From Escherichia coli (lineage in GTDB: Bacteria; Pseudomonadota; Gammaproteobacteria; Enterobacterales; Enterobacteriaceae): a DNA stretch of 64,000 nt. A model generated the notes under the pieces. It did not search any database. It was not told the origin of the DNA and was given only the letters and a program-made list of their open reading frames with translations. Below, in pieces: positions 8,442 through 62,000 of the stretch (positions are counted from its first letter, which is position 1; every line of letters begins with the position of its first letter). Location of the stretch: NCBI RefSeq assembly GCF_017348835.2, contig NZ_CP072315.1; one strand, 5' to 3'. Made by a program: the position numbers and the translations under genes.

Positions 8442-8451
8442 GGAGAAACCC

Positions 8452-15057: not shown

Positions 15058-15075
15058 TTAAATTATACCCATGTG

Positions 15076-15111: not shown

Positions 15112-15127
15112 ATTGAGAGAGGATCAC

Positions 15128-16063
15128 ATGAAAATTATCGAAAAAATCATTAATGCCTTTTTGGTTGTTCAACATAAAAAAATACAGGTTAAAAACATTA
15201 CATTTTTAGACAATGGGCAGGGCATGTTCTCTGGTATGTCTTTTGATGCTGATGTTTCACTGGAGTTTATGTATGAATCAGCAAAAGCATATAGTTCTTG
15301 TTTCTGTGATATTCCCTTTCCAGGTTTTGAAGATGCAAATCTGGAGGAAATTACGAAATTTCAATTAGATGCTTTGAAGCAAAGAAAGAATCATTCTTTC
15401 TTTGTTAACCATTTGAGGTTTCCTATAGTTTTAAGGGAAGGGTGCAAAATCGAAAGAGGAGAAGTCTATTCAATTTCGAATTGCACTTATAATAAAGAAA
15501 GATTGCAGTATCTTTTTTCTCAGGATATTTACGGTAAGTTGTATAATTCCTTAGAGAAAGAATTAAGCTCGTTTTTCTCATTTATCAATGTTGAGGTGCA
15601 CGAGTTGTTAAAAGATGCTGTATGCTTTGCATTAAAAATCCTGAATAAGATATCTTTGGATACACCTGAAAGACTTATTAAAGCTTTTAATTATCGTGAC
15701 TGGTATTGTAGTTACGATGTTGAGCTTTTTAGGAAAGGCTTACCTGGTCATATTCTGGAAGAGCTCATTGCTCCAGATATCTTACTTTCAGACCTTAACG
15801 GTTGTAGAAAAATACTTAGAAATGCAAAACGAGTTCTAAATGGACATACACAAACCAATTGTGTTTATATTAAATATGAATGGTGGTTGGGGCCTGTTGA
15901 TACCTCACACTCAGCTAAGTTGATGTCTGACAAAGAAATTAATAACCGAAGTGACTTGAAGAATTTTTCAAAGGTCTTTTTCAAAGAGTGTTTAAGTTCT
16001 GGTAAGTCGGAATATGAAAACCATCTTAGTGAAAAAGAACATGCGCTTCGCTATAATTATTAA
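15128..16063 (+). CDS. Hypothetical protein, array member 2
   Basis: Track start 15113 is TTG; ATG at 15128 has a GAGAGG RBS. 311 aa. Confidence 0.5.
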   Translation: MKIIEKIINAFLVVQHKKIQVKNITFLDNGQGMFSGMSFDADVSLEFMYESAKAYSSCFCDIPFPGFEDANLEEITKFQLDALKQRKNHSFFVNHLRFPIVLREGCKIERGEVYSISNCTYNKERLQYLFSQDIYGKLYNSLEKELSSFFSFINVEVHELLKDAVCFALKILNKISLDTPERLIKAFNYRDWYCSYDVELFRKGLPGHILEELIAPDILLSDLNGCRKILRNAKRVLNGHTQTNCVYIKYEWWLGPVDTSHSAKLMSDKEINNRSDLKNFSKVFFKECLSSGKSEYENHLSEKEHALRYNY

Positions 16064-47978: not shown

Positions 47979-48170
47979 TCATCGAGGCGCATAACCTTCT
48001 TCCCTTAACGCCTGTTGTAATTTATCAACTGCGCTTTTCATTACCCAGGCTTCTTCGTCACTCACAGCACAACCACGTAGATCGCTCCAGCTCAGACGTT
48101 TAACAAATTGAGCAAGGGCCATAGTTTCGTTCTCATCAAGCCGCAAACTCAGTGTCTCAATACCTTCCAC
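47979..48170 (-). CDS. Hypothetical small protein (63 aa)
   Basis: ORF with RBS (aaggaggttagattgtgg on the minus strand); no motif recognised. Confidence 0.35.
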   Translation of the reverse strand: MEGIETLSLRLDENETMALAQFVKRLSWSDLRGCAVSDEEAWVMKSAVDKLQQALREEGYAPR

Positions 48171-48261
48171 AATCTAACCTCCCTTATAATGAAAAATGGC
48201 GCTTTACTTCTGACCAGATGCCGAAGCCTTGAATGCAGCCGGAACTGTCGTTGTTTCTACT

Positions 48262-48633
48262 TTACAGAAATGGAATTAAAAAGTGGTGATGCTGGGCACG
48301 TTTCTTTTCCAGCCGGGGTTTAAGCCAGAGCTGAAACTCATTCAACTTCTCAGCAGCCAAAACCGCTTCAACGGGGAAAACTTTATATTTACCCTGTTGC
48401 TGAGGTTCACCCAGCCATCGCCTGATGGCTCCGTCAGTCCATAAACGAGTCTCTTTTAGCCTAGTTACAGTGACCCATTTTCTGGACCATTCATCAAATT
48501 GTCGCTGGCGATCCCGATAACGTTGTTCTTCCTGCTGCCGAAGCCACTCGCGATCAACAGCAAATTTTCGGTATCCAACAAAGAGCCCTTGTACTTTGGC
48601 CATGTCATATTCCGGTTGCTTAGAGTTACTCAT
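48262..48633 (-). CDS. Hypothetical protein (123 aa), basic/Arg-rich
   Basis: ORF only; Arg/Gln-rich helical central region. Confidence 0.4.
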   Translation of the reverse strand: MSNSKQPEYDMAKVQGLFVGYRKFAVDREWLRQQEEQRYRDRQRQFDEWSRKWVTVTRLKETRLWTDGAIRRWLGEPQQQGKYKVFPVEAVLAAEKLNEFQLWLKPRLEKKRAQHHHFLIPFL

Positions 48634-48975
48634 TCAACCAAAACCTAAACGTCGATACAAACTCTGTTTCATAACCAGGGTTTTATCCTTACCGCGACAG
48701 TAAGTAACAGGGGCTGCATAAACCGGTCATTTAGTCCGTTATGCAAAAATTATTGAGGATCCGGGCTGTTAAACTGTTCTTCCTCTTTCGCTTCCGGTGA
48801 AAAGGGGAGGTGTCACCCTGCGAGCCCGTGTAGTGAAAGGGATTCGTCGTAATACAGGCCAAAGGCTAACATGACCGCAAAGGACGCCCGGGCGACCGGA
48901 TACCTGCCGGGTTGTGCGATGTAAAATCCGGAAGCAGTGATAACACAAACAGGCCCCTACAGCGTAAGGATTGTG

Positions 48976-49368
48976 ATGGACGATAAAGAGCAGTTTACGA
49001 ATCTTGTGGCAAAGCATGCCTCCGGACTCACCGAAGAGCAGCTGGCCGGGTACGATGCCTGTTCCCTGGATGGTGAATGCGTCACGCCTTCATACGAGGT
49101 TTTCCGGGGGTATCGTACCCGCCACACACTGGATGAATTTCTGGAGATGGCCATATCGCTGAATGCCATCCACCCGGATGAATATTTAACGGATATGCTG
49201 CTGAAGCCTCATGAGGTGATCGGCGCTCTGGCCGATGAAGGCGACCAGCTGAACAACGCCACCCCGGTTTATTTCTTTCCGGATACCGGCGTCTATGCAG
49301 CGGCCGTTAGTGAAACCCGGGTGCTCGATGCCTGGCTTTGCTGGCCATGCTACCCGGCGAACTGGTAA
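48976..49368 (+). CDS. Hypothetical protein (130 aa)
   Basis: ATG at 48976 with AAGGA RBS; track start 48937 is GTG. Confidence 0.45.
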   Translation: MDDKEQFTNLVAKHASGLTEEQLAGYDACSLDGECVTPSYEVFRGYRTRHTLDEFLEMAISLNAIHPDEYLTDMLLKPHEVIGALADEGDQLNNATPVYFFPDTGVYAAAVSETRVLDAWLCWPCYPANW

Positions 49369-49436
49369 CGCGGCCGTTGGAATTGCACCGGCCGGATACG
49401 AATTTAACCGATCCCGTGGCGGGAAGGCTATCAGAG

Positions 49437-49689
49437 TTGCATGTCCTCATCCCTCAAGCCCCCTGCCAGGCCCCAACGTGCTGTCAGGCTTCGCCTGATT
49501 CCCGATCTGCGCCGATACTTCAGCCGATAACTTTTTGTTTTCTTTTTATTTTCTTCCCATTTCCTCAAAAATCGCGGGCGGCGTGGACAGGGCACCATTG
49601 CCGCATGTGGGGTCTTAATAAGGGCAGGGTGGTCAGTTTTGCTCGATGCCATGGGTAGGCCCTCCCCTTCATGGGATGAGGACATGCAA
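49437..49689. repeat. Element bounded by perfect 17-bp terminal inverted repeats (MITE-like or large stem-loop)
   Basis: TTGCATGTCCTCATCCC at 49437-49453 and its exact reverse complement at 49673-49689, ~220 bp apart, with no convincing ORF inside. Confidence 0.5.
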
Positions 49690-49842
49690 GTAAGCTAACT
49701 ATCTGAAATGACGAAGGTTCATTTGGTGAATGTCGCTTCATATTAATGTTGTGTCACTTATGATCGTATGTAGCTGGTTGCAAAGAGGAGCGATGAGACA
49801 ATAAAGTTGTATCGCTAACAAGATTTATGCTGCCACATAGTA

Positions 49843-49941
49843 ACAGCCTAAAAGTTGTACGCCCTATTTAACAGCTTTTAGGCTGTTAATTTGATATTAC
49901 AGCTTTTAGGGTGTATGTTTAGGAAACAGCCTGCAAGGTGT
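49843..49941 (+). promoter_or_regulatory. Four evenly spaced operator-like repeats upstream of hipB
   Basis: ACAGC-N6-GTTGT (49843), ACAGC-ttttag-GCTGT (49871, perfect palindrome), ACAGC-ttttag-GGTGT (49899), ACAGC-ctgcaa-GGTGT (49926); spacing 27-28 bp, ending 28 nt before the hipB ATG. Confidence 0.6.
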
Positions 49942-49968
49942 ATCAGAGGAAACTACTGAGGCCAGCTT

Positions 49969-50265
49969 ATGATCAATAATGATTACCCGTTAAACACGCT
50001 CAACCAGCTGCGTCCCTTGCTCATTGGTTTTCGCAAGGCGAATGGCCTGACGCAAAAAGACCTGTCCGAAAGGTTAGGCGTCACTCAACAGACATACTCA
50101 CGTCTGGAAGCCAACCCTGCCAGTGCGAGCATTGAACGGCTATTCAAGGTGTTTTCCATCCTGGGCGTAAAAATCAGCTTCTCCTCGGCAACCACCTCTT
50201 CAGAGAGGAAGCAGACGGAAGAAATGCTTAAATCAAACTCACCTGCACGACAGGAGGATTGGTAA
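49969..50265 (+). CDS. hipB: HipB antitoxin (XRE-family HTH repressor)
   Basis: 98 aa; LIGFRKANGLTQKDLSERLGVTQQTYSRLEANP matches HipB helix-turn-helix; 4 nt upstream of hipA. Confidence 0.85.
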   Translation: MINNDYPLNTLNQLRPLLIGFRKANGLTQKDLSERLGVTQQTYSRLEANPASASIERLFKVFSILGVKISFSSATTSSERKQTEEMLKSNSPARQEDW

Positions 50266-50269
50266 CGAT

Positions 50270-51595
50270 ATGAGCCGGAAACAGCAACGTCTGGTAATTT
50301 GGATGAACGGCATCAAAGTCGGGTACTGGGAAAAAAGCAAAGGGGTAGACAGCTTAGAATACCTTCCTGAATGGGTTGCTGACGAACAGGGAAGGCCGCT
50401 GTCATTGTCCCTTCCTTTTACTCCCGGGAACCAGGTCTGGCGTGGAAATGTGGTACGTGACTATTTTGATAATTTACTGCCGGACAGCGAAGGCATACGC
50501 AGACGTCTGGCAATGCGTTACAAGGCCGATAGCCTGGAGCCTTTTGATCTGCTGACGGAGCTGGGAAAAGACTGCGTGGGCGCGATACAGCTGCTTCATG
50601 ACGGAGATGAACCCACTGATTTATATTCCGTGAAGTATCACCCGCTTACTGAATCAGAAATTGCGGCAACTTTGCGTAATACCACGGAGACATTGCTACC
50701 GGGCAGGCCAGAAGATAACGACGACTTACGTTTATCTATTGCCGGTGCTCAGGAGAAAACAGCCCTACTGTGGCATGAAGATCGGTGGTGTATGCCGGAG
50801 GGTAATACACCAACGACGCATATATTCAAGCTACCGCTCGGACTTGTGGGGAACATGAAAGCCGACATGAGCTCGTCGGTTGAAAATGAATGGCTCTGCT
50901 CGGTACTTCTCGGCCAGTACGGGCTCCCCGTGGCAAGAACGCAGATTGCTCACTTTGAAGATCAGAAAGCGCTGGTGGTAGAACGTTTTGACCGAAAATG
51001 GTCAGGAGACGGACAATGGATCATTCGTTTACCCCAGGAGGATATGTGTCAGGCCCTGGGCGTTTCGCCATTACGAAAATATCAGGCGGACGGCGGGCCA
51101 GGTATATCGGAAATTATGGAGGTTCTGAGTAATTCAGACCGTGCTGAGCGTGACAAAGCGCAGTTTTTTATGACGCAGATAATTTTCTGGATGATGGCCG
51201 CAACAGATGGCCACGCTAAAAATTTCAGTATTTCTATTGGGCCACAGGGACGTTATCACCTTACACCAAACTATGATGTGTTGTCGGCATGGCCGGTGAT
51301 CGGTCATGGGAACAATCAGATATCCTGGCAGAAGTGCAAACTGGCGATGGCCGTACGTGGCAGTAGCAACTATTACCAGATATATCGAATACAACGACGC
51401 CACTGGATCAGGCATGGTGAGATAACCGGCCTGAGTAAACAGCAGACAGAGGCGATGATAGAGGAAATCATCGCCAGAACCCCGGGTGTCATTGAACGTG
51501 TTAGCGGGCTTCTTCCGGACCAGTTCCCCCAGCAGCTTGCGGAAAGTATTTTTGATGGAATGAGGCAGCAATGCAGGCGCCTGGCTGAGAAATGA
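50270..51595 (+). CDS. hipA: HipA-family Ser/Thr kinase toxin
   Basis: 441 aa; blocks shared with E. coli HipA (PLSLSLP, FDNLLPDS, SIAGAQEKTALL, ATDGHAKNFS, RLPQEDMCQ). Confidence 0.9.
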   Translation: MSRKQQRLVIWMNGIKVGYWEKSKGVDSLEYLPEWVADEQGRPLSLSLPFTPGNQVWRGNVVRDYFDNLLPDSEGIRRRLAMRYKADSLEPFDLLTELGKDCVGAIQLLHDGDEPTDLYSVKYHPLTESEIAATLRNTTETLLPGRPEDNDDLRLSIAGAQEKTALLWHEDRWCMPEGNTPTTHIFKLPLGLVGNMKADMSSSVENEWLCSVLLGQYGLPVARTQIAHFEDQKALVVERFDRKWSGDGQWIIRLPQEDMCQALGVSPLRKYQADGGPGISEIMEVLSNSDRAERDKAQFFMTQIIFWMMAATDGHAKNFSISIGPQGRYHLTPNYDVLSAWPVIGHGNNQISWQKCKLAMAVRGSSNYYQIYRIQRRHWIRHGEITGLSKQQTEAMIEEIIARTPGVIERVSGLLPDQFPQQLAESIFDGMRQQCRRLAEK

Positions 51596-51655
51596 CAGCC
51601 GCAATTTATAGTGTGCATGTTTTCAGAATAGCTGATGTAAGCGTGAGGATTCAGT

Positions 51656-51862
51656 ATGACTGAAGAACAAAAAAGAATAGAGCGGGCTATTGAGTTGGCT
51701 TGTCGTTACGGCGGAACCGATGAAATGCATCATCTGCAATGGGTCGTGGATCAGATGGTAAGAGAACTTGCTGGAGAACGTTATGCACAGATTGTAGCTG
51801 ATGCCACCAGCGGAGAAGATGGGCCTGATACTTACAAATGGAGTGTTGGGATCGCGCCTTAA
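51656..51862 (+). CDS. Hypothetical small protein (68 aa)
   Basis: ORF only. Confidence 0.35.
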   Translation: MTEEQKRIERAIELACRYGGTDEMHHLQWVVDQMVRELAGERYAQIVADATSGEDGPDTYKWSVGIAP

Positions 51863-51963
51863 CAGCTGTCGGTCTGGGGGTGAAAACGTATTCTTCATTC
51901 AGCGAATTCCCAGGCTTCACATTAAGACTAAAGCGGCGGCCGCAGTAACGTAAGAGAAAATAA

Positions 51964-52374
51964 ATGGCTATTTTAGCAATCATTGCAGTTATCGCCCTGG
52001 GTGGGTACGCCTACGGATTTATTAAAACCCGTGAGCTGAGCGCTTTGCGTAAAGAAATGAAACTATACGTGGATCGCATGGAAGCGGCGGAGCTGGACTT
52101 ACACGCAATCAGAAGTGTAGCGGAGCACCGGTTGCACGGTGCAGGTAAACAGTTTGCCGACCTTTACAGCCGTATCGACGGTGCAACTGTGACGCTGACA
52201 CCCGAAGATCAGCTGTTACTGGCAACGATGCCATTTAATATTCAGGATGTAGAAGACATCGTAAACGAGCGCGGTCCAAAGACAATTAGCGGCCGTCCAT
52301 TCTGGGAAGTTGAGCCAGGCCCGCATGATTATGAATATGGCCCGCAATATCCGTATTTCCCAGACCAGCGCTAG
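51964..52374 (+). CDS. Hypothetical protein with N-terminal TM anchor
   Basis: MAILAIIAVIALGGYAYGFI hydrophobic N-terminus; 12 nt upstream of the HNH gene. Confidence 0.45.
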   Translation: MAILAIIAVIALGGYAYGFIKTRELSALRKEMKLYVDRMEAAELDLHAIRSVAEHRLHGAGKQFADLYSRIDGATVTLTPEDQLLLATMPFNIQDVEDIVNERGPKTISGRPFWEVEPGPHDYEYGPQYPYFPDQR

Positions 52375-52386
52375 GAAGAGATCAAG

Positions 52387-53202
52387 ATGAGAGAGCCAAG
52401 ACCACGCCATACCTTGCAGGTCATTCGTGTACCTTCTCTGGAGGTTCAGGACCTGGGGCTGACCAGCTTTGATAGCTGGCTTGACGAGCACGGGTATGAC
52501 AAAACGAATGCCAGAAATAACCGTACCATCTGGGCGAGAGAAGGCGGATGGCATCTGAAACGTTGCAGAAATCTTGAAACTGGCACGGACGATTTCTGGT
52601 TTATCGCTTTCGATGGTAAAGGCGGGAAGATTTACCCGCTGAAAACCCAAAGAGACTACCGGGCTGCATATCGTAAGCTGGAAGCAGAAGGTTATGCGCC
52701 TGCGGTCATCGAGCAAATGACCACAGGCGCAGCATATAACCTGGCCTATCCACGTTCCATCCTAAAACAAGCTGAGACGGCCACCAGCGAGCCAATTCGG
52801 AAACCTGACGTAGATATCCAGGGTGAGCACTGCGAGCGCGTAGTGACGCAACGTAGTGGCGTGGCACAGGGTAAATTCAAAGCTCTGCTCATCGAGAATT
52901 TCGCAGGCCGTTGTGCGGTAACCGGTTGGGTTAATGGAGGTGTCCTGGATGCGGCACACATTGAACATGGAACCCGGTACAATCCGTCTAATGGCATCCT
53001 GATGACTCCAACAATGCATGCGCTGTTTGATGCCGATCTTATGGGCATAGATCCGGCCACCCTGACCGTTCATTTTAAGCCAGGCATTGAGGTGGGCGAG
53101 CTGTTTGAAGGCCGTAAAATCACACCGCTGGTGTACGATCTGGACTTAGAGCGGCTGGCCGTACGCTGGGCAGAATACCAGGGCCTTGCTCAGGACCAAT
53201 GA
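52387..53202 (+). CDS. HNH-nuclease-domain protein
   Basis: C-terminal HNH-like signature GRCAVTGWVNGGVLDAAHIEHGTRYNPSNGILMTPTMHALFD; N-terminal ~150 aa unassigned. Confidence 0.6.
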   Translation: MREPRPRHTLQVIRVPSLEVQDLGLTSFDSWLDEHGYDKTNARNNRTIWAREGGWHLKRCRNLETGTDDFWFIAFDGKGGKIYPLKTQRDYRAAYRKLEAEGYAPAVIEQMTTGAAYNLAYPRSILKQAETATSEPIRKPDVDIQGEHCERVVTQRSGVAQGKFKALLIENFAGRCAVTGWVNGGVLDAAHIEHGTRYNPSNGILMTPTMHALFDADLMGIDPATLTVHFKPGIEVGELFEGRKITPLVYDLDLERLAVRWAEYQGLAQDQ

Positions 53203-53485
53203 AGGGTGACAGCCAGGTTGTGCCTAAACCTGGCAGTAAAACCTGCATGCCACAAACCTTTAAATTCTGACTCAAGAGCCTGGCACAAGATAAAAGCGAA
53301 ATGAAAAGGTTAAAACCGGTGCACCAGACCTCTTAGGTTTAATACCTGAGCCAGTATACTGGCAGTCTCAGGTAAGTGGGTATCATACACTTCAGAAATA
53401 TCCACACCGAGATAACCGCAACAGTTAAAGGGTGATGCTGCCAACTTACTGATTTAGTGTATGATGGTGTTTTTGAGGTGCTCCA

Positions 53486-53761
53486 GTGGCTTCTGTTTCT
53501 ATCAGCTGTCCCTCCTGTTCAGCTACTGACGGGGTGGTGCGTAACGGCAAAAGCACCGCCGGACATCAGCGCTATCTCTGCTCTCACTGCCGTAAAACAT
53601 GGCAACTGCAGTTCACTTACACCGCTTCTCAACCCGGTACGCACCAGAAAATCATTGATATGGCCATGAATGGCGTTGGATGCCGGGCAACCGCCCGCAT
53701 TATGGGCGTTGGCCTCAACACGATTTTCCGCCATTTAAAAAACTCAGGCCGCAGTCGGTAA
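53486..53761 (+). CDS. insA: IS1 InsA
   Basis: [42 protein letters not shown]..., canonical InsA. Confidence 0.9.
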
Positions 53762-54183
53762 CCTCGCGCATACAGCCGGGCAGTGACGTCATCGTCTGCG
53801 CGGAAATGGACGAACAGTGGGGATACGTCGGGGCTAAATCGCGCCAGCGCTGGCTGTTTTACGCGTATGACAGGCTCCGGAAGACGGTTGTTGCGCACGT
53901 ATTCGGTGAACGCACTATGGCGACGCTGGGGCGTCTTATGAGCCTGCTGTCACCCTTTGACGTGGTGATATGGATGACGGATGGCTGGCCGCTGTATGAA
54001 TCCCGCCTGAAGGGAAAGCTGCACGTAATCAGCAAGCGATATACGCAGCGAATTGAGCGGCATAACCTGAATCTGAGGCAGCACCTGGCACGGCTGGGAC
54101 GGAAGTCGCTGTCGTTCTCAAAATCGGTGGAGCTGCATGACAAAGTCATCGGGCATTATCTGAACATAAAACACTATCAATAA
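53680..54183 (+). CDS. insB: IS1 InsB reading frame (expressed as InsAB' transposase by -1 frameshift)
   Basis: Canonical InsB sequence (...[36 protein letters not shown]...). Confidence 0.9.
53737..53743 (+). other. IS1 programmed -1 ribosomal frameshift motif A6C
   Basis: AAAAAAC inside the insA/insB overlap. Confidence 0.7.
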
Positions 54184-54226
54184 GTTGGAGTCATTACCGG
54201 AGAATTGTATCATTAACAGTCTAGTT

Positions 54227-54892
54227 CTAACGACTACCACTTTTAAGTATGTATTGAGCCAGTTTTATATTCAGGCACACCATATTGCACTCTAGCTCTT
54301 TCATCATTCTTGAAGAACTCTTAATTAAGTATTCTTCAAGTGGGCCAGCATATGCCCCTGATGTCACGATCGTTAGTTGCGTAAGAGGATGAGTCAAACT
54401 CTCAATGCCCTTCAGGATGTCATTCTGGACAGCAGCAATATAAACAGGCGAAGCCGCAATCAAATATTCATCATTCGGGCTGGACTGCATTAACTGGCTT
54501 ATAGTTGCGCAACGGTTATGCTTACCTAGTGATTTTGTGATGGCTTTCCACCAGAGATCATGCCTGAATGGTACTTGATGAAATGTCGCCTCGTAAGAGG
54601 GCACCCGATCTCGACTATTTAAAAACCCCATCCCGGCAGAGATTATCCACAACTCCAGATTTCTGGTTGAGTTTAAAATTTCCTTTGCCGTAGACCAGTG
54701 ATTACCTGAATACAAGGACAATGCCGGTACCGCCTGATTACTTCTGGCGTCGTCTACAATGTTACTCCAGGCATATGCTGCGTCGTCCGGGGTTTGTTTT
54801 GGATCTATGTCCAATGTCGGCCAGACGTGGCCCTGATGATTCTTGCCCTTTGTACAGGAAGTGATTAAGTGTACTGAGCGTTCAGAGAACAT
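54227..54892 (-). CDS. Hypothetical protein (221 aa)
   Basis: ORF only; no motif recognised. Confidence 0.45.
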   Translation of the reverse strand: MFSERSVHLITSCTKGKNHQGHVWPTLDIDPKQTPDDAAYAWSNIVDDARSNQAVPALSLYSGNHWSTAKEILNSTRNLELWIISAGMGFLNSRDRVPSYEATFHQVPFRHDLWWKAITKSLGKHNRCATISQLMQSSPNDEYLIAASPVYIAAVQNDILKGIESLTHPLTQLTIVTSGAYAGPLEEYLIKSSSRMMKELECNMVCLNIKLAQYILKSGSR

Positions 54893-54949
54893 TATCTTCC
54901 TTACATACCCATAGAACAGCTTTCTAAGAACGGTGGGCTCGCCTGAAAA

Positions 54950-55330
54950 TTACAAATCAGCCCCTTTCACGGCATCATTTTGATTCTTCGCGTCTGCCCC
55001 CAGTAAGATGACCGGTTTTCTGCATGACAGTGTTATTCCTAACAAACGCAACACAAAACCACGCCAGCCAGAGCAAATTTTTTCATTTGCTGCGTAAAGC
55101 CTATTGTTTTCTCTTTTAAGCTTCGCCCACTCGTTACAGAGGGTAACATCATCAAGCGCTGTTATATGCTTCGCCTCACCTTCGACGATAACGGTATGGA
55201 TACCGTATGCTGTAAATCTCATACTATTTTCCAGAACCCAGTTGCGGTATTCGTCGAGTCCACCTTCGGAACCGGTAGCTCTGCGCCACATTTCAATTTG
55301 CTTGTGTGATGGGTCAAGTGTACTTGTCAT
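54950..55330 (-). CDS. Hypothetical protein (126 aa)
   Basis: ORF only. Confidence 0.4.
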   Translation of the reverse strand: MTSTLDPSHKQIEMWRRATGSEGGLDEYRNWVLENSMRFTAYGIHTVIVEGEAKHITALDDVTLCNEWAKLKRENNRLYAANEKICSGWRGFVLRLLGITLSCRKPVILLGADAKNQNDAVKGADL

Positions 55331-55960
55331 TGAAGCCTCGTCTCAGCGATAACGCTTGAAATAGCCCGCTTTGGTCATCATGAAATTAGCCATCTGACTG
55401 GCGATTTGATTGTATCTTACTCATAGTGCCCTACCTATAGGTTAAAAAGGGGCATTTTCGCTTTATAGCGTGTTCAGCAGCATCAATCCTCCCAAGAAAG
55501 GCTGGCTTATTAAGCCGGTCCATCATTTTCTGTATATCTCTCATCAATTTTTATATCCGCCCTGGAGTGCACCGTTCAAGCACACCGATTAGGCAGATAG
55601 TCACTAGTTAACTCTTTACTAGTGACTAAATTCCATTGATATACGTGACAACGTCACGTCATGAAAGCTTATAAATGCCTATTTTTCATACAATGGGATT
55701 TAATTAGGAGTAAATCCCATAGGCTTACATAAGGATGACAATTAAAAGCGTTAAATATCAACCAGATAGAATGATTACCCCCAATTAATGGGCTCATCAC
55801 ATTATTTCACTGGCTGGGGTTATTGCTGGCATATCTGAAAGTGCTAATATGTTAGTCATTAGTAATTAGTAAAGCCTTTACTAAACGCGTTTCTACGTAA
55901 ATTCTATAGGTTTTATAGTGTCCTACCTTTGCTCAAATCAAAATGTTCTGACATACCAAA

Positions 55961-56791
55961 ATGGAGTGTAAAATGACTCAAAACCAGGGTTCTGAGCCAG
56001 TACCGGCGAGCCGGACAGGGCAGCTCATCAGCGCCCGGGATATGGCCATGCAGAAATTCGAAGAAGGGATGCGGTTAATCTCGGAAGCGTCGGAACTGTG
56101 CGGTCTCTCTCTCTTCACCAGCAGAATTATGCAGCCCAACGCATTTGGTCTTCCGTCGTCACTGGATCGCACCATCGAGGAGGGGCGTAAGGAAATTGAC
56201 CGTAAAACGTGGAAAAGGCTCTTTGAAGAAACAGGTATGGACCGGTACTGGAACCATAAGCAAAAAGAAGCCTTTAACGAATCCCTTCGTACGGATCCGC
56301 CCGTCGCTTCCCTGGAGATTGTTAAGGGAACATTACAGCATGCACTGGCTAACAGACGAGACACCCTTGCAGAAGGTTTCGTTGATGTTCTCAACAAGCT
56401 TGACCGAAGTTTCAAAAGCAATGCCAGGCAATATACAATGCCAAAAAAGCTTGTTCTTCGGGGGATTTTTCCTGGTGTGAACGTGCTGAGGTACAACGGT
56501 TTCTCGCAGGACAATCACTTTTGTTTACGCGACTTTGAGAATATTGTATGCATCTGTTCTGATACTCCAACACCTGCAACCGGCGGTGGGCTGAGTATGG
56601 TCGACAGGCTGACGGCCATGAGAAATACAGAATTCACAGGCGAGGTCAGTGATGAGAATGGCTGGCGGTGTCGCCTGTTTGAGAATGGAAACGTTCATAT
56701 TTGCATCGACAGTATCTCGCTTCTGAATGCTCTGAACGATCTTATCAGCATATATTTTGCAAACCAGCTTCCGGCCGCAGGAAAAAAATGA
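55961..56791 (+). CDS. Hypothetical protein (276 aa)
   Basis: ORF whose stop overlaps the start of the next gene (ATGA); no motif recognised. Confidence 0.5.
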   Translation: MECKMTQNQGSEPVPASRTGQLISARDMAMQKFEEGMRLISEASELCGLSLFTSRIMQPNAFGLPSSLDRTIEEGRKEIDRKTWKRLFEETGMDRYWNHKQKEAFNESLRTDPPVASLEIVKGTLQHALANRRDTLAEGFVDVLNKLDRSFKSNARQYTMPKKLVLRGIFPGVNVLRYNGFSQDNHFCLRDFENIVCICSDTPTPATGGGLSMVDRLTAMRNTEFTGEVSDENGWRCRLFENGNVHICIDSISLLNALNDLISIYFANQLPAAGKK

Positions 56792-57993
56792 TGATTGAAA
56801 ATGATAAAGAAAAAAGCCTGAACGATGCTACCCCGCCAGAGGTGCAGAATGACATCCGCAGCGAATCCACTGAAAAATCAAAGGAAATGGGTCGTTCAAG
56901 GTACTCATCTATCGCGATGATCGATTACTTCAATGCAATCGAACGTCTGTGCAAAGAGAAAGAAATTAACCCGGAAAATATCGATCTGAGCTTCAAAGTT
57001 CACTGGCTCAGAAACGCTGTTGGCGGCTCGTTTGCAAGGTCACAGGAGATGTTCGCGGAGTACCAGAAGTATGTTAAAGAGGTTCCTGAAGAGGCCCGTT
57101 ACCTGGATATACCCGATGAGGTAAAGGTTGCACTCGGCGATATTATCTCGTACATCACCTGGCACTACCGTAGAAGCTATACCGCAATACAGAATGATAG
57201 TGTTAAAAAAGCTGAAGCACGTAGCATGCAGCTGGAGGAGGAGGTAACGCAGCTGTTACAGCGGCTTGAGCAAAGCGCTACCGATATGGATGAGCTGAAA
57301 CTTGAGAATCAGGCACTACAGGGTCGATTAGAGATCCGGGACAGTACCGTCAAGGAGTTAGAAACAAGGCTGAATGTTGCCGAAGCAGAACTCGAAACCT
57401 GCCATCACCAGTTAGATAGCACACGGCATGAATTGAGCCTCGCACAGCAGTCAAATGACTCACTCTCCCAGCAACTGGCTGAACGTAAAACAGAGATCGC
57501 TGGTCACCTTGAATATCAAAAAAAGCTGAACGAAGAGATCAACACGCAGCGTTCTGATAACGCCGGTCTTTCCAGACAATGCGACCAGTTAAGTCAGACT
57601 GTGTCAGATACAAAGGCAGAGAGGGACAGGTTTGAACAGGAATTGATTGCTGCACAGAACCTTTGTACTGAGCTGAAAAGTGCACTGTCCGGGAAAGAGG
57701 GTGACCTGGTGGCGGTGAATGCCGAGCTTACTGAACTCCATAAACTAAACGAGTCGCTGAGCGCCGACCTGAATAAAGTAACTTTGGTCAGCCAGGGCTA
57801 TGAAGCGGAAGTGGCTGAACAAAGCAATGAACTCAAAACGCTCCAGGCCAAAGTAATGAAGCTGGAAGCTACCCTGGAGGCGGAGAAAACAATCTCAGAA
57901 TCCCTAAAAGGCACCATTGATACATTAACTGGTGCAATGGCAGGGGGAGGTACTGGAAAGTCAAAACAGCCGCGTAGCAGAAAAACATCATGA
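56788..57993 (+). CDS. Coiled-coil protein, KfrA-like (tentative)
   Basis: N-terminal globular region followed by ~250 aa of heptad-like Q/E/L-rich sequence and a basic tail (GKSKQPRSRKTS); resemblance to KfrA is architectural only. Confidence 0.4.
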   Translation: MMIENDKEKSLNDATPPEVQNDIRSESTEKSKEMGRSRYSSIAMIDYFNAIERLCKEKEINPENIDLSFKVHWLRNAVGGSFARSQEMFAEYQKYVKEVPEEARYLDIPDEVKVALGDIISYITWHYRRSYTAIQNDSVKKAEARSMQLEEEVTQLLQRLEQSATDMDELKLENQALQGRLEIRDSTVKELETRLNVAEAELETCHHQLDSTRHELSLAQQSNDSLSQQLAERKTEIAGHLEYQKKLNEEINTQRSDNAGLSRQCDQLSQTVSDTKAERDRFEQELIAAQNLCTELKSALSGKEGDLVAVNAELTELHKLNESLSADLNKVTLVSQGYEAEVAEQSNELKTLQAKVMKLEATLEAEKTISESLKGTIDTLTGAMAGGGTGKSKQPRSRKTS

Positions 57994-58056
57994 TAAATGA
58001 AGCCAGGTTGATACACTTCTCTGCATCCCCTGGCACATAAGAACTTCTGCGGACAT

Positions 58057-58260
58057 TCAGCCCGTCCGCAGGAGTTTTCGTCCTTCAGTCAACAAATGCA
58101 CTACCTTTTTTGAGTCTCCACTTTCCAGAGCAGAAAACACGTTACCGATTCTACCAACAGCTTGTATCTGAGTGATAACCCCAGTCTTGTAATCATCTAG
58201 GATCCCTGACAGGAAAGCGTTCAGTTTTGTCTGTTCGCTTAGCGAAAGCATGTAGGACAT
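58057..58260 (-). CDS. Hypothetical small protein (67 aa)
   Basis: ORF only. Confidence 0.3.
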   Translation of the reverse strand: MSYMLSLSEQTKLNAFLSGILDDYKTGVITQIQAVGRIGNVFSALESGDSKKVVHLLTEGRKLLRTG

Positions 58261-58272
58261 TTTTTCTCCATT

Positions 58273-59592
58273 TTAAGCAGGTGTGTCAGTTGAAAGAGGT
58301 TTGCGTGATTCTGGAAAATGAGGCAGCACCATAGTTTCAGATGCTGTGGTCGCATCCCAGTGCCACCATCCATAAGGCCCATATTCACGGTTGTAATAAT
58401 CTTTTTTGAGTTGCTTTCGGGCCAGATAAGCAGGAGTGGCCATACCAAATACTTCCATCGGGAACGGCTTATCGCTTTTTGTGTCGAGCAGGTAGAAGTC
58501 AGGGAACACCTCACTAATACTCGCATCATAACGCATGGGCTTAACGTACTGCCGGTGCTCTGCATCCAGCTTTTCTGCAACAACCGCCTCATAGGAGGAG
58601 TCCAGAGGTATCCAGTTCTCGCTAACGTGCATCAGCACAATTTGATGAGCTCTTACAGAAGGGCCTCTGCCGGTTACCACAGCTGGTGACGTCAACGCAA
58701 AGACAACTATTTTCGCCCCGGATTTCCATGCTGCGTACTCCGATGAAAATCGTTTCTTTACGCTATCCCAATGGACTTCTGAATTGAAAAAAATCAGCGG
58801 TAGCCCCCCAAAATTCCGCAGGGGTAAAAATTTAAGTGGCTTCTCATGCTTTTCAGCATCGTAGCGAGGTAAAACTGACAGGAGCATGAGACGTTTATCA
58901 CTCATCGCCTGTGATGAAAGACGCTGAATTTGCGACTGAGCGACAGGTTGTTTCGGGTCAGGTACACCAATGAATAAATGGTCACCTATGCAGGCTCTGC
59001 CGGTACGAATTTGTTTAGCGGTTTCAAGCAGACGATACCGTACCAGTGAATCGTTACGTTTCCCTGCCATTTTCGGGTACCAGACATTCAGACCAGACTC
59101 TGTCCACAAAAGACTAAGCAAGCCCAGGAGGGTCATTGAGGCCTGACCTCCTTCTGGTCGCTGAACATGGGGCAGGGGAGGCACTTCTGATTTTTCAGGA
59201 GGATCTTTCTCTGTCATACCGATACCGAGCCTTACAGCCATATCACCTTCGGTTGTAATCCGGACCACACCACTCGCATATCCTTTCAGGCCGGTATGCC
59301 GGGCATCAAGGGAGAAGAATACACAGGAAGGATCATGCTCAATGCCCGTGTTAGCGGCTTTGACGAGAATAAAGGCATCACCGTTCGGTAAAGCACGAAC
59401 ATAAAGTCGCTTTTCTCCTTTTCCACGACATCCGCAGGTGATGACTGATTTTTGACCTGAGGTGTGGTGTGCCTTTTTAAGAGCCGACTGCCACCCTTTA
59501 GCAAACTCATCCTGCGTTTGAAAGTCAGGTGAATACCTTTTGACGTTTGGATCGTCGTCGTAAGCAATCATCACTGCGAATTTTTGGCTCAT
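58273..59592 (-). CDS. Hypothetical protein (439 aa), downstream of dcm on the same strand
   Basis: Large ORF with good start context; no catalytic motif recognised. Confidence 0.5.
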   Translation of the reverse strand: MSQKFAVMIAYDDDPNVKRYSPDFQTQDEFAKGWQSALKKAHHTSGQKSVITCGCRGKGEKRLYVRALPNGDAFILVKAANTGIEHDPSCVFFSLDARHTGLKGYASGVVRITTEGDMAVRLGIGMTEKDPPEKSEVPPLPHVQRPEGGQASMTLLGLLSLLWTESGLNVWYPKMAGKRNDSLVRYRLLETAKQIRTGRACIGDHLFIGVPDPKQPVAQSQIQRLSSQAMSDKRLMLLSVLPRYDAEKHEKPLKFLPLRNFGGLPLIFFNSEVHWDSVKKRFSSEYAAWKSGAKIVVFALTSPAVVTGRGPSVRAHQIVLMHVSENWIPLDSSYEAVVAEKLDAEHRQYVKPMRYDASISEVFPDFYLLDTKSDKPFPMEVFGMATPAYLARKQLKKDYYNREYGPYGWWHWDATTASETMVLPHFPESRKPLSTDTPA

Positions 59593-59614
59593 AGTAGTCT
59601 CCTAAACAGGAAGT

Positions 59615-59782
59615 TTAATATCCCAACCAGAGCAACACTTCCTGAGCGTCATACTGTTCCTTTACGCCCATGTCGCTAAAGAATTCTTCGAAATCTGTTT
59701 CGGGAACGCAATGCCTGGACAGTTCTTGTAATGCTCGTTCTTTAGATACCGTCTCACCTTCAGCTGATTCGAAATACGTCAT
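59615..59782 (-). CDS. Possible small acidic protein (55 aa) between dcm and the 439-aa gene
   Basis: Translation MTYFESAEGETVSKERALQELSRHCVPETDFEEFFSDMGVKEQYDAQEVLLWLGY; acidic; not in the track (<60 aa). Confidence 0.3.
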   Translation of the reverse strand: MTYFESAEGETVSKERALQELSRHCVPETDFEEFFSDMGVKEQYDAQEVLLWLGY

Positions 59783-59842
59783 GGTTGACCTCTGACATTA
59801 TTACAACAATCTTAAGCATTTAAATTGATGAAGGAGCTCAGG

Positions 59843-61312
59843 TCAGCTGACTTCGTCGTAAAACTGCCGCAAGCGCTGGGAGGCTGCAAATTCAATTCGT
59901 GACTTCAGCAGTTTGGCGACGGCCGCAAAGACATCAACGACCACGGAGTTCCCAAACTGTCTGTAAGCCTGTGTATTGGACACAGGGATACGGAAAACAC
60001 TTTCCCCGGGTTTATCGAAGCCCATTAGCCTGCTGCATTCACGTGGCGTTAGCATGCGTGGCCGACGGTCCATGTTGTATGTGTTATGGAAATCAGTTTC
60101 TCCCAGTTCATGAGACCAGCCCCGATCAATAAGAATTTCAGATCCGTCTTTCATATAGCGGCTTGAGAGGGTTCTGGTGACACTATTAACATTGGAAGGA
60201 TCTACTAGTCCAAAACCAAAACCATTGCCTTTTGCCGCATGTTTCTTTGCATAGTTGTATAAGTACTCCCAGAGTTTAGGGGAGAGGATGTATTTACTAT
60301 CTACGCTCGGATCCAGTAAATCTGAGAGAGAAGGGCGCTTGTCCGGATAAAAGTCTTTAATGTCTCTCAGAGTAAAACCGTCTTTCAGACGTAGGTCGCG
60401 GCGAAAACCAATAAGGACGATACGTTCACGGTGCTGGGGTCGGAAATGACGGCCATCGATGACTTTAGGATCATCCGCGCCCGTGCTTTCGCTGTTTGCG
60501 ACGTCGTAGCCAAGCTCATCGAGCGTTTTCATGATGATGTTAAAGGTATTACCCTTATCGTGACTCTTCAGATTTTTTACGTTTTCCAGAACAAAAATTG
60601 CAGGTTGTTTTGCCCGGATGATCCTGGCCACATCAAAGAAGAGCGTACCCTGAGTGTCGCACTCGAAACCGTGTTTGCGACCCATAGAGTTCTTTTTACT
60701 GACACCGGCGATGCTGAATGGCTGGCATGGAAATCCCGCAAGAAGAACATCATGATCCGGGATAGAGGCATCGATAAATTTGTATGCCTCGTCATCAGTA
60801 ACCTCGGGCCGGTTGCTAAGAGTGATGTCACGGATGTCTGAATTGAAGCGGTGCTCGTTCTCATCGCAATACCAGTTCGCCCGGTAAGTACGGCTGGAAT
60901 AAGTATTCCATTCGCTCGTGAAAAGACATTTACCACCGATGGCATCAAATCCGCTTCGCAGTCCACCTATCCCTGCAAACAGATCGATAAAGCTAAAGTG
61001 CCTGTCCTCATAATCAGCAGGTCGTGAAGGTATTAAAGTCTGTAGATAGCGTCCATCTGCGATACTCAGCTCACAATGCTCAGGTATGCATGTAACCTGA
61101 CGTTTAAGGGATGCACGGGACCAATTACTGCCATTTTCATCATTTAATACCTGAGCCAGATATTTCAGGTCATAAATGGTCGAAGCTGTTAACAAAGTTT
61201 TGTGGATCAGAGATGGTGTTTTATCCACATCATTCAGGTCTGTCTCAAGATCATGAGTGTAACGTTTCATCCAAACTCTCTCAGGAATAATATCTTTGAG
61301 ATAGATTAACAC
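59843..61312 (-). CDS. dcm: DNA cytosine-5 methyltransferase, Dcm orthologue
   Basis: Motif [11 protein letters not shown], motif [10 protein letters not shown], motif VI ENVKNL; long stretches near-identical to E. coli Dcm (recalled) including C-terminal RLMGF...QFGNSVVV. Confidence 0.9.
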
Positions 61313-61481: not shown

Positions 61482-62000
61482 ATGATGTTTTTTTTAACAA
61501 AGTTACTTTTGCCCATCATGATTGTTGTATTCCCAGTGGCGTCCTGGGGGAACTCAACAACTTTTGAGGCAAAGGTGGTTAAGATTGTTGACGGTGACAC
61601 CATAACTGCGTTGGATGCTCAAAACACAACCATCAAAATACGGATGTATGGTATAGACGCTCCTGAATCTAAACAGGCTTTTGGCCAAAAAGCAAAACAG
61701 GCCTTAACCACAGCTATAGCAACTAAAATCGTTACCGTGATAGACCATGGTACGGATATCTATGGCCGTATGTTAGGTACCATCTGGTTAGATGGATATG
61801 ATATCAATGCCTCTATGGTGGACAGTGGATATGCGTGGGTTTATCGGTTCGAAGATAACGCCATTGTCCCTGGCTATATCAAATATGAATCCGCAGCACA
61901 AAAGGAGGCAAAAGGGTTATGGGCAGACACCAACCCTGTCCCACCATGGCAGTGGAGACAGGCAAACGAAAAGCCCAGAAAGGTGAAAGAGAAGAAATAA
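61482..62000 (+). CDS. Secreted thermonuclease (SNase-like) homologue
   Basis: Signal peptide MMFFLTKLLLPIMIVVFPVASWG; SNase core VDGDTI...RMYGIDAPE. ATG at 61482 with AAGGTGA RBS; track start 61446 is GTG. Confidence 0.75.
   Translation: MMFFLTKLLLPIMIVVFPVASWGNSTTFEAKVVKIVDGDTITALDAQNTTIKIRMYGIDAPESKQAFGQKAKQALTTAIATKIVTVIDHGTDIYGRMLGTIWLDGYDINASMVDSGYAWVYRFEDNAIVPGYIKYESAAQKEAKGLWADTNPVPPWQWRQANEKPRKVKEKK

Follow-up and report, generated by a model that had tools for sequence, protein, structure and literature searches.

Do three small genes that lie close together between a toxin-antitoxin operon and an insertion sequence form a single defence module, built from an HNH nuclease and a membrane-anchored partner, or are they neighbours with separate histories? 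The genes encode proteins of 68, 136 and 271 amino acids (aa) and lie on the plus strand of a 64,000-nucleotide stretch of Escherichia coli DNA, hereafter the window, between hipBA and an IS1 element, separated from one another by 101 and 12 bp. The initial annotation had pointed to three closely spaced, co-directional reading frames at this place, and its coordinates proved exact (Table 1). We refer to the 271-aa protein as HNH-A. All three frames are annotated coding sequences in RefSeq entries of identical plasmids, each has homologues of constant length, and pairwise comparison with divergent homologues revealed purifying selection on every one of them, with dN/dS values between 0.05 and 0.12 (the 68-aa gene gave 0.05-0.06, the 136-aa gene 0.12 and HNH-A 0.08, the last at a dS of about 1.8 against its IncHI1B-type orthologue). 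Taken together, constant length, selection and RefSeq annotation indicate that these are real genes and not chance open reading frames.

Table 1. Features of the locus, in window coordinates.
Feature	Coordinates	Strand	Description
Non-coding element, ~253 nt	49437..49689	.	Conserved; closed by a perfect 17-nt inverted repeat
hipB	49969-50265	+	Pfam HTH_3; RefSeq annotation
hipA	50270-51595	+	Pfam HipA_C/Couple_hipA; RefSeq annotation
68-aa protein, WP_000134171	51656..51862	+	Acidic (pI 4.7), soluble
136-aa protein, WP_000985911	51964..52374	+	N-terminal membrane anchor, aa 2-20 (predicted, hydropathy)
HNH-A, WP_053276223	52387..53202	+	271 aa; two-domain HNH_2 nuclease (by homology)
HNH-A N-domain, aa 7-125	52405..52761	+	Basic, pI 9.1; alignments A4, A8
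HNH-A C-terminal module, aa 158-271	52858..53199	+	Helix (QGKFKALLIENF), HNH_2 core, C-terminal extension
HNH_2 core of HNH-A, aa 176-222	52912-53052	+	Beta-beta-alpha-Me; H191, N202, H211
IS1 (IS1B-like)	53431..54198	+	Without 9-bp target-site duplication; flanks cagttaaag and ggagaattg differ

The window is the backbone of an IncHI2 conjugative plasmid, and the locus adjoins the ter cluster. The neighbourhood had been described as typical defence-island content; this holds insofar as relatives of the HNH gene occupy defence-type settings, but the region itself is plasmid backbone and not a chromosomal defence island. Over 1,100 sequenced plasmids carry the block, as do about 5% of complete E. 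coli genomes, and the host range of the plasmids takes in E. coli, Salmonella, Enterobacter and Klebsiella. On the 5′ side of the trio, hipB and hipA (49969..51595, plus strand) form a type II toxin-antitoxin operon, with operator-like repeats nearby at 49836-49914. A promoter scan carried little information, with seven promoter-like sites against 4.2 expected, and within the trio the sole such site lies 5′ of the 68-aa gene; scanning between the genes detected no convincing terminator, and an Rfam search of positions 48000-56000 returned zero families. The same plasmid also encodes a Dcm-like cytosine methyltransferase, on the opposite strand at about 59843-61270, some 7 kb from HNH-A. Literature searches on these protein accessions, and on IncHI2 together with HNH or defence, returned no mention of the trio and no experiment.

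In IncHI2 itself, the arrangement of the genes lends some plausibility to a single defence module whose membrane-anchored component, the 136-aa protein, would detect infection or else tether and regulate the nuclease. The three genes are tightly spaced, a promoter-like site stands 5′ of the first of them only, no convincing terminator separates them, and the hipBA-68aa-136aa-HNH-A block is 97% identical across IncHI2 lineages up to the site of the interruption in the HNH gene (97-100% among the plasmids that carry it). Moreover, the Shine-Dalgarno sequence of HNH-A (AGGAAGAG) sits within the 3′ end of the 136-aa gene; given the 12-bp gap, translational coupling is possible in IncHI2, and there may be a lineage-specific functional link. 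As in the known defence systems that pair a membrane protein with a nuclease, a small, predicted membrane-anchored protein is encoded directly 5′ of the nuclease gene. Unlike those systems, the pair is not conserved beyond one plasmid group, and neither small protein has a PADLOC model.

The distribution of the genes speaks against such a module. Using tblastn we inspected the surroundings of HNH-A orthologues of 79-82% identity in three backbone types (IncHI1B-type, L007-L010 and L014; L026/27; L028-30) and of a 42% identical paralogue (P0017), and no homologue of the 68-aa or the 136-aa protein was found near any of them. Conversely, homologues of the 136-aa protein (82%, 62% and 44% identity) were located on an IncFII plasmid, on a phage-like contig and in a chromosomal island, in each case with no HNH gene, while homologues of the 68-aa protein (75-85% identity, three contexts) adjoin pemIK, Rep3 or a methyltransferase and are accompanied by neither an HNH nor a 136-aa gene. 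Outside IncHI2, the components were therefore together in none of the four HNH-A, three 136-aa and three 68-aa contexts examined. The family extents of all three proteins were bounded by searching 5.8 billion proteins and, exhaustively, 1.84 billion representatives. Their representation in PLSDB differs as well: the N-domain of HNH-A is present in 1,296 plasmids (195 of them at 60-90% identity), the 136-aa protein in 1,141 (all at 90% identity or above and all IncHI2-type) and the 68-aa protein in 1,248 (90 of them below 90% identity).

Even within IncHI2 the genes part company. About 330 IncHI2 plasmids, mostly from Enterobacter, hold only part of the block, and in the one that we examined, pEC-IMP, both small genes are kept while insertion of a mobile element has cost the HNH gene its catalytic domain. 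These partial blocks imply that HNH-A is dispensable for plasmid survival. Since each gene occurs elsewhere without the others, the sequence comparisons indicate that the trio is not a conserved three-gene defence system. The initial annotation had itself named a complete lack of co-occurrence in other genomes as refuting its proposal, and beyond IncHI2 this is essentially the pattern observed. The membrane-anchored partner proposed in the initial annotation is thus largely refuted as part of a module, and we regard the single-module explanation as highly improbable.

The two small proteins are better viewed on their own. The 68-aa gene is preceded at about 10 nt by a GAGGA Shine-Dalgarno sequence, and its product has 49 homologue clusters, from Yersinia, Serratia, Leclercia and Enterobacter, most of which have the very same length of 68 aa. 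Searches of Pfam, NCBIfam and PADLOC gave it no match, and by these homologues it belongs to a widespread plasmid-borne 68-aa family. For the 136-aa protein, an N-terminal transmembrane helix had been suggested, and the prediction stands: residues 2-20 are strongly hydrophobic (Kyte-Doolittle 19-residue mean 2.23) and are followed by K/R residues. In the alignment of its homologues (A2), the motif RMEAxELDLHxIRSV is invariant and lies in a helical segment, and the C-terminus (YEYGPQYP) is rich in Pro and Tyr. A PADLOC search matched no model to this protein.

How, then, did these genes come to be adjacent? At the nucleotide level, the window is homologous to IncHI1B-type backbones over 49002-49689 and again from 52388, the start of HNH-A. 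The conserved non-coding element forms the left edge of a slot that in IncHI2 holds hipBA and the 68-aa and 136-aa genes, and in other backbones (L026, L028) the slot 5′ of HNH-A is filled by different genes. On the other side, identity to IS1-less IncHI2 plasmids ends at the left end of IS1, and the segment that IS1 replaces encodes, in those plasmids, a 141-aa protein, a 102-aa protein and a second HNH nuclease, HNH-B (WP_000784387). The ends of this comparison, together with the unlike flanks of the IS1 copy, indicate that HNH-B was removed here by IS1-mediated deletion. We propose, with roughly even confidence, that the trio consists of separate accessory genes of the IncHI2 backbone, made adjacent by the history of one variable slot, and that HNH-A is a stand-alone, type IV-like nuclease. 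IncHI-like backbones would carry a conserved orf143 and a hairpin-like element, then variable cargo, then HNH-A and usually HNH-B; in IncHI2 the cargo would be hipBA with the two small genes, and the lineage of this window would have lost HNH-B through the IS1-mediated deletion.

HNH-B is 285 aa long in IncHI2 and 236-291 aa in other backbones. It is encoded on the same strand as HNH-A and within about 0.6-1.6 kb of it, and in IncHI2 the gene for the 102-aa, Cys-rich protein precedes it. A repeated cassette of a small protein followed by an HNH gene was considered and rejected, the 136-aa protein having no similarity to either of the proteins (141 and 102 aa) encoded ahead of HNH-B. The proximity of the two nucleases suggests another possibility, namely that they form a conserved IncHI pair with complementary specificities, or a heteromer, of which the window retains a remnant crippled by IS1. 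HNH-B orthologues (53-55% identity) do follow HNH-A in IS1-less IncHI2 (L001), in IncHI1B-type backbones (L007/L014) and in S. diarizonae contigs (L028-30), and one protein, P0214, joins the N-domain and two HNH_2 domains in a single chain. However, HNH-A occurs without HNH-B in the L026/27 and P0017 contexts, and it is intact in the lineage of the window, where at least 262 plasmids match at least 80% of an 18-kb query spanning the IS1 junction. In addition, the proteins have in common just the HNH_2 module, at 27% identity, their N-termini differ, and the genes that separate them vary among backbones. We therefore consider such a pair to be quite unlikely and keep the stand-alone nuclease as our working model for HNH-A.

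The C-terminal HNH motif reported for the 271-aa protein, the one member of the trio whose function can be read at all, was borne out. Residues 176-222 match Pfam HNH_2 (PF13391) over the whole profile (positions 1-66 of 66), the score of 30.5 bits exceeding the cut-off of 21 (E-value 3e-7), and precomputed PF13391 assignments are carried by all HNH-A homologues. Residues C176, G180, H191, N202, H211 and D215 are invariant across the homologues (alignments A1, A7 and A9); the H-N-H residues and the motifs of the N-domain are invariant even among proteins that are only 33-79% identical. By homology, HNH-A accordingly belongs to the HNH_2 beta-beta-alpha-Me nucleases and has its catalytic residues intact. 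Its core matches only generic PADLOC models ('HNH', PDLC04132, E 2e-8; 'Type II restriction enzyme', PDLC03546, E 4e-3). An NCBIfam match to 'phosphorothioated DNA-binding restriction endonuclease' is weak and limited to the HNH region (E 0.022, far under the cut-off), and PHROG families match aa 118-266 alone. The single chain comprises the N-domain (aa 7-125), a linker (aa 126-157) and the helix with HNH_2 (aa 158-271). An NTPase domain was found neither in HNH-A nor in the proteins encoded by adjacent genes, and no methyltransferase gene adjoins HNH-A in the IncHI2, IncHI1B-type, L026, L028 or P0017 contexts. A scan of one genome per species returned zero relatives of HNH-A.

The N-terminal half is the unusual part of the protein. 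The initial annotation had left about 150 residues of it unassigned, and they remain so after our searches, with aa 1-150 matching nothing in Pfam, NCBIfam or PADLOC and the N-domain having no sequence match in the PDB. By sequence the domain falls into none of the known modification-reader families (PUA/EVE/SRA/YTH/ASCH, SBD, wH, NEco, DUF3427). Its invariant residues include TLQ, DLG, WL, YD, GWH, FW and GxGG. An AF2 model of full-length HNH-A built from 17 sequences had a mean pLDDT of 58, with the HNH part below 50 and most of the N-domain at 70-87, the latter being laid out as beta-beta-alpha-alpha-beta-beta-alpha3; modelling the N-domain alone from six sequences was worse (pLDDT 48.6). 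Fold comparison with a model of this weak quality (mean pLDDT 58, or 48.6 alone) gave no significant match. An exhaustive phmmer search of the 1.84 billion representatives with the N-domain yielded 27 matches; the domain always precedes HNH_2 in the chain, the proteins being 268-540 aa long, and HNH_2 is present in every full-length carrier. This constant partnership with a nuclease domain is in keeping with a role as a DNA or target sensor, which we presume for it, although it may just as well bind DNA in a sequence-specific or structure-specific manner, or sense a protein.

The closest relative of known structure is the modification-dependent enzyme VcaM4I (PDB 6yex), which the C-terminal profile of HNH-A matches with an E-value of 6e-13. 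In VcaM4I, a sensor (1-147), a linker helix (148-178) and an HNH domain (179-309) follow one another; the enzyme dimerises via the HNH domain, which is toxic unless the linker helix restrains it (PMC7897488). HNH-A shares with the EVE-HNH enzymes VcaM4I and TspA15I (PMC7897488, PMC6765204) a single chain of about 270-310 aa, the order sensor, linker helix, HNH_2, and the lack of an adjacent methyltransferase or NTPase partner; with VcaM4I it further shares the 'RxGQGxFR...CxVTG' helix, a general-base His and a structural Asn. Residues H191, N202 and H211 of HNH-A align with H224, N241 and D250 of VcaM4I, so that the metal ligand of HNH-A is, by alignment, the canonical His where VcaM4I has Asp. 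HNH-A also differs in its N-domain, which is not of the EVE/PUA type and for which searches of Pfam and the PDB gave no sequence match, and in that its gene is part of a conjugative plasmid backbone.

The combination of a reader with an HNH domain recurs in the SRA-HNH and SBD-(SRA)-HNH type IV enzymes (ScoA3IV/Sco5333, TagI, ScoMcrA, SprMcrA and EcoWI; PMC6765204, PMC7461809), but unlike in these, no SRA or sulfur-binding domain was detected in HNH-A. SRA-HNH enzymes that depend on 5mC are toxic in Dcm+ E. coli (PMC6765204). Dcm-type 5mC is unlikely to be the target of HNH-A, since its gene is stable in E. coli and Salmonella, and the plasmid that carries it has a cytosine methyltransferase gene of its own. 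EcoKMcrA, a NEco-HNH protein of 277 aa from the e14 prophage (PMC6182155), resembles HNH-A in its near-identical size and in being borne by a mobile element in Enterobacteriaceae. Kinship between the two was rejected: hhalign gave a probability of 15% over 51 columns of the HNH core only, and the N-domains are unrelated by sequence. The McrA core matches PF01844 at 56 bits and HNH_2 at just 19.9 bits, under the cut-off, and McrA was absent from the matches of two PDB fold searches with the weak model of the HNH-A N-domain.

The genomic settings of the relatives have a restriction-like flavour. The P0017 paralogue (42% identity) lies behind a regulator that matches the PADLOC restriction-modification model 'Control_protein' (E 8e-19) and near an integrase and Lamassu-like genes, while proteins sharing the C-terminal module of HNH-A are found in a P4-like satellite and next to Lamassu-like genes. 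A 389-aa gene 5′ of both P0017 and P0027 was rejected as a shared partner, the two 389-aa proteins being unrelated.

A sensor, linker and nuclease in one chain, with neither an NTPase nor a paired methyltransferase, is the architecture expected of a type IV enzyme, and HNH-A would most likely be a stand-alone, NTP-independent, two-domain endonuclease of this modification-dependent kind. Its basic orphan N-domain would recognise some feature of foreign DNA, and the linker and helix (aa 126-172) would couple that domain to HNH_2 and probably restrain it. The HNH_2 domain would dimerise and cut, with H191 as the general base, H211 as a metal ligand and N202 in a structural role, as mapped from VcaM4I (PMC7897488); its role would be an anti-phage or anti-plasmid one. 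A more specific version of this proposal, in which the N-domain is an unrecognised reader of DNA modification or structure and HNH-A, with HNH-B where present, makes up a type IV-like restriction battery in IncHI backbones, is tentative and falls well short of an even chance.

Alternatively, HNH-A could be a sequence-specific or structure-specific nuclease that serves plasmid biology (competitor exclusion, recombination or repair, or selfish, 'homing'-like maintenance) and not defence. In line with this, its position is syntenic across IncHI-type plasmids, consistent with vertical inheritance, its N-domain is not a recognised modification reader, and type II enzymes also belong to HNH_2, as the match to PDLC03546 illustrates. 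Such a cutter would nonetheless be toxic across a broad host range if it had no cognate protection, and the gene is dispensable in the roughly 330 plasmids with partial blocks. Neither a comparison of HNH-A with 50,697 phage genomes nor a scan of viral contigs with the N-domain alignment produced a match, unlike what is seen for many homing enzymes, and the paralogues and module-sharing relatives reside in integrase, satellite and Lamassu-type islands. A phage, intron or intein homing endonuclease setting was likewise rejected, given the lack of a phage match and the syntenic position in the plasmid backbone at 75% nucleotide identity. We judge a role in plasmid biology to be unlikely. That HNH-A is an inactive or decaying relic carried along by the backbone deserves hardly any weight: while the gene is lost or truncated in many plasmids with no obvious consequence, and the literature reports no function, the low dN/dS of 0.08, the invariance of the H-N-H residues and N-domain motifs, and a full-length frame in about 830 plasmids all argue against decay.

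The type IV-like nuclease thus remains our preferred interpretation, and what would be new about it is an orphan N-domain on an HNH_2 nuclease that is laid out like a modification-dependent restriction enzyme. The supposed module of membrane sensor and nuclease is a juxtaposition in one plasmid group, and HNH-A, alone or with HNH-B, is the proper experimental target. If HNH-A is active with a new specificity domain, it would add a further reader domain to the toolkit of modification-dependent enzymes. Among the main carriers of mcr-1, mcr-9, ESBL and heavy-metal resistance are the IncHI2 plasmids, and an active HNH-A would be a barrier encoded in their backbone, with possible consequences for phage therapy or for competition between plasmids in resistant Enterobacteriaceae. 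A restriction battery, if there is one, would shape which phages and rival plasmids can establish themselves in plasmid-bearing Enterobacteriaceae, including those with mcr- and ESBL-carrying IncHI2 plasmids.

We recovered, at the same coordinates, the three closely spaced, co-directional ORFs that the initial annotation had placed between hipBA and IS1: all lie on the + strand, with gaps of 101 bp (68-aa/136-aa) and 12 bp (136-aa/HNH-A, the 271-aa protein), hipB and hipA being upstream and IS1 downstream. The transmembrane helix proposed for the 136-aa protein agrees with strong hydrophobicity at aa 2–20. The C-terminal HNH motif proposed for HNH-A was matched by Pfam HNH_2 above cut-off (aa 176–222) as well as by generic PADLOC ‘HNH’ models, and its N-terminal ~150 aa, described as unassigned, had no match in Pfam, NCBIfam or PADLOC. 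Each gene of the trio has homologues of constant length with conserved motifs, and pairwise dN/dS is 0.05–0.12; judged from these comparisons of sequence, all three are real genes. Existing annotation goes no further than ‘hypothetical protein’ and ‘HNH endonuclease signature motif containing protein’; the literature has no paper that discusses these genes. The palindromic boxes preceding hipB are presumably HipB operators; they differ from the operator consensus of hipBA on the E. coli chromosome.

Positions of features in the window and of HNH-B regions in comparison loci
Feature	Coordinates	Strand	Remarks
Non-coding element	49437–49689		~253 nt; perfect 17-nt inverted repeat at ends
Palindromic boxes, ACAGC(C/T)TTTAGGCTGT-like	49836–49914		3 copies in 80 bp, directly upstream of hipB
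hipB	49969–50265		upstream of trio; Pfam-confirmed
hipA	50270–51595		upstream of trio; Pfam-confirmed
68-aa ORF	51656–51862	+	recognisable Shine-Dalgarno
136-aa ORF	51964–52374	+	hydrophobic N-terminus
271-aa ORF (HNH-A)	52387–53202	+	recognisable Shine-Dalgarno; Pfam HNH_2
IS1	53431–54198		downstream of trio
DUF6884 protein	54227–54892	−	
DUF4942 protein and 430-aa coiled-coil protein	~55961–57993		overlapping
DUF1173 protein, 55-aa ORF, DNA cytosine methyltransferase	~58273–61270	opposite	
Staphylococcal-nuclease-like (SNase/thermonuclease) protein	~61485–62000	+	
HNH-B region, L001 (IncHI2, p14EC029b)	14831–16012		
HNH-B region, L014 (IncHI1B-type, pSE81-1706)	8379–9455		
HNH-B region, L028 (S. 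diarizonae)	7640–8934		

IncHI2A/MOBH/MPF_F conjugative plasmids, pAMSH1 among them, match the window at 100% identity; the window extends from trhN across the ter cluster and into the accessory region. The 1.7-kb block carrying the trio occurs in 284 of 5,426 complete E. coli genomes (on plasmids in 291 of 295 places) and in 1,163 PLSDB plasmids from Escherichia, Salmonella, Enterobacter, Klebsiella and Citrobacter, about 330 of them without full coverage of the block; a search of phage genomes gave no match. Elsewhere in the window, parts of the region ~55961–61270 are conserved in IncHI1B-type backbones, and its cytosine methyltransferase is an orphan, no restriction gene adjoining it. The DUF6884 and SNase families, both present in the window, also adjoin each other beside a 136-aa homologue on an IncFII plasmid (L011 6129–7420) and constitute a recurrent group of uncharacterised accessory genes on plasmids.

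Co-occurrence, whose absence from other genomes the initial annotation had named as refuting a nuclease module with a membrane-anchored partner, was assessed on loci carrying homologues. HNH-A orthologues of 79–82% identity lie on IncHI1B-type plasmids (L007–L010, L014), on an unplaced contig type (L026/27) and on S. diarizonae contigs (L028–30), and a full-length paralogue of 42% identity (P0017, L003–L006) is flanked by an XRE regulator on one side and an integrase on the other; tblastn detected no 68-aa, 136-aa or hipBA homologue at any of these loci. Homologues of the 136-aa protein adjoin an SRAP gene on the IncFII plasmid (62% identity), occur on a phage-like contig (44%) and adjoin a KAP NTPase in an Enterobacter chromosomal island (82%), with no HNH gene nearby in these three contexts, and 68-aa homologues (75–85%) in Serratia, Yersinia and Enterobacter have pemIK, a Rep3 replicon or a methyltransferase as neighbours, without HNH-A. 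The PLSDB counts differ as well: 1,141 plasmids for the 136-aa protein (every one at ≥90% identity), 1,296 for the HNH-A N-domain (aa 7–125; 195 at 60–90%) and 1,248 for the 68-aa protein (90 below 90%). Furthermore, in the Enterobacter IncHI2 plasmid pEC-IMP HNH-A is broken near codon 143 with IS4321 directly downstream, so that the catalytic domain is gone while both small genes are retained. The trio is therefore an IncHI2-specific juxtaposition and not a conserved module: outside IncHI2 the genes separate in all examined loci, and the membrane-partnered nuclease idea does not survive. Very probably the trio does not work together as a module, and a three-gene module, for which the tight spacing in IncHI2 would speak, is very improbable; the two small proteins behave like part of the stock of small accessory genes circulating among enterobacterial plasmids. 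In pEC-IMP (L015 5001–6711) cadR and a P-type ATPase lie beyond IS4321, and what remains of HNH-A is an N-domain-only ORF of 174 aa; many database ‘hypothetical proteins’ of 154–203 aa (P0011, P0012, P0015) may represent this same truncation.

The recurrent neighbour of HNH-A is a second HNH_2 gene, HNH-B, present in IS1-less IncHI2 (p14EC029b, L001), IncHI1B-type plasmids and the S. diarizonae contigs, its orthologues having 53–55% identity. Identity between the window and L001 ends at the IS1 left end, 26 bp short of the next gene, and IS1 stands in place of L001 13831–16012, which holds a 141-aa gene, a 102-aa Cys-rich gene and HNH-B (285 aa). Since this IS1 has no 9-bp target-site duplication (flanks cagttaaag vs ggagaattg), HNH-B and its neighbours were lost by IS1-mediated deletion; an 18-kb query across the junction found at least 262 plasmids matching ≥80% of it. 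That HNH-A and HNH-B constitute a pair, as their recurrence together could suggest, is quite unlikely. HNH-B is uncharacterised and has an N-terminus unlike that of HNH-A, and the small ORFs flanking it vary by backbone (in IncHI2 one of 102 aa upstream, elsewhere one of 98 aa downstream).

Upstream of HNH-A, nucleotide homology to IncHI1B-type backbones covers 49002–49689 (the region of orf143, a conserved backbone gene, plus the conserved non-coding element) and restarts at 52388, one base inside the HNH-A start codon; the 2.7 kb between comprises hipBA and the 68-aa and 136-aa genes. This slot holds ~0.7 kb with tiny ORFs in L007/L014, five unrelated genes in L028 and a 463-aa gene on the opposite strand in L026. 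The element forms its left edge, homology to other IncHI backbones stopping exactly at the right arm. The repeat arms of the element (TTGCATGTCCTCATCCC ... GGGATGAGGACATGCAA) enclose a T-rich core that is invariant, and 1,451 PLSDB plasmids (228 at only 60–80% identity) each carry a single, unannotated copy; the + strand fold of the element has −106.8 kcal/mol (z = −4.2), and no Rfam family matches. Variation among the four sequences compared was too small for covariation; the element may represent an ncRNA or a site of recombination. Compared with window ORF 49338–49658, the N-terminus of the 426-aa protein P0214, GELVTRSLELHRQDTSLTAPRAGRLIQLHVLIP, is the translated left part of the element, LHVLIP corresponding to the left arm; this N-terminal part passes without a gap into an HNH-A-type N-domain at residue ~25. 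Read from the protein, this join implies a deletion with its endpoint at the repeat arm, and the fusion point would thus be a second rearrangement endpoint coinciding with the element.

In alignments of full-length homologues and of proteins sharing the C-terminal half alone, Q161, F164, C176, G180, H191, N202, G203, H211 and D215 of HNH-A are invariant, and an inactive relic is highly improbable. The C-terminal module profile found one solved relative, VcaM4I (PDB 6yex, E 6e-13), an EVE-HNH modification-dependent restriction enzyme with a sensor (1–147), a linker helix (148–178) and an HNH domain (179–309), which dimerises via its HNH domains and whose linker helix restrains the otherwise toxic domain (PMC7897488). 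Its H224 (general base), N241 (structural) and D250 (metal ligand) (PMC7897488) map onto H191, N202 and H211 of HNH-A, and its domain plan onto the N-domain/linker/helix-HNH order. EcoKMcrA was rejected as kin, being alignable with HNH-A only over the minimal HNH core (hhalign, probability 15%).

The N-domain is basic (pI 9.1) and had no hit in Pfam, even at E ≤ 10, or in the PDB by sequence or profile. Exhaustive phmmer against 1.84 billion representative proteins gave only 27 hits, restricted to Enterobacteriaceae-type sources; all full-length proteins among them carry HNH_2 C-terminal to the N-domain, as 268–285-aa forms, 464–540-aa forms with a Lys-rich N-terminal extension (P0210–P0213) and a single 426-aa form, P0214, in which the HNH_2 domain occurs twice. 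The N-domain is therefore a dedicated partner of the HNH-A-type nuclease module.

Around the relatives, the regulator ahead of P0017 matches the PADLOC R-M ‘Control_protein’ (E 8e-19), with a P4-type integrase and Lamassu-like genes (CTD7, MC3, LmuB_C) downstream; P0020, which shares the C-terminal module, belongs to a P4-like satellite that also carries T5orf172 and a primase/DUF927 gene, and P0027 adjoins MC5, CTD9 and AAA_23 genes. Beside these neighbours, a non-defence plasmid nuclease is an unlikely reading of HNH-A. None of the HNH-A or relative contexts examined has an adjacent methyltransferase, and the cytosine methyltransferase of the IncHI2 plasmid lies ~7 kb from HNH-A. A reader domain fused to a nuclease and acting alone is expected to have modified DNA as its target, as it would otherwise harm the host (PMC11037411). 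Because SRA-HNH enzymes that depend on 5mC are toxic to Dcm+ E. coli (PMC6765204), HNH-A by analogy probably does not target Dcm-type 5mC; if modification-dependent, it would probably target a mark missing from its enterobacterial hosts.

HNH-A would accordingly resemble a stand-alone, NTP-independent, two-domain nuclease whose N-domain may recognise some feature of incoming DNA and whose HNH_2 domain would be gated by the linker and helix, dimerise and cut nearby. We advance such a type IV-like nuclease tentatively, with less than middling confidence; the combined explanation, in which the trio is not a module and HNH-A is type IV-like, stands about evenly balanced. From its sequence, HNH-A is best filed as a sensor-plus-HNH restriction-type nuclease with an unrecognised sensor domain, of moderate interest and relevant to restriction-enzyme and plasmid biologists.
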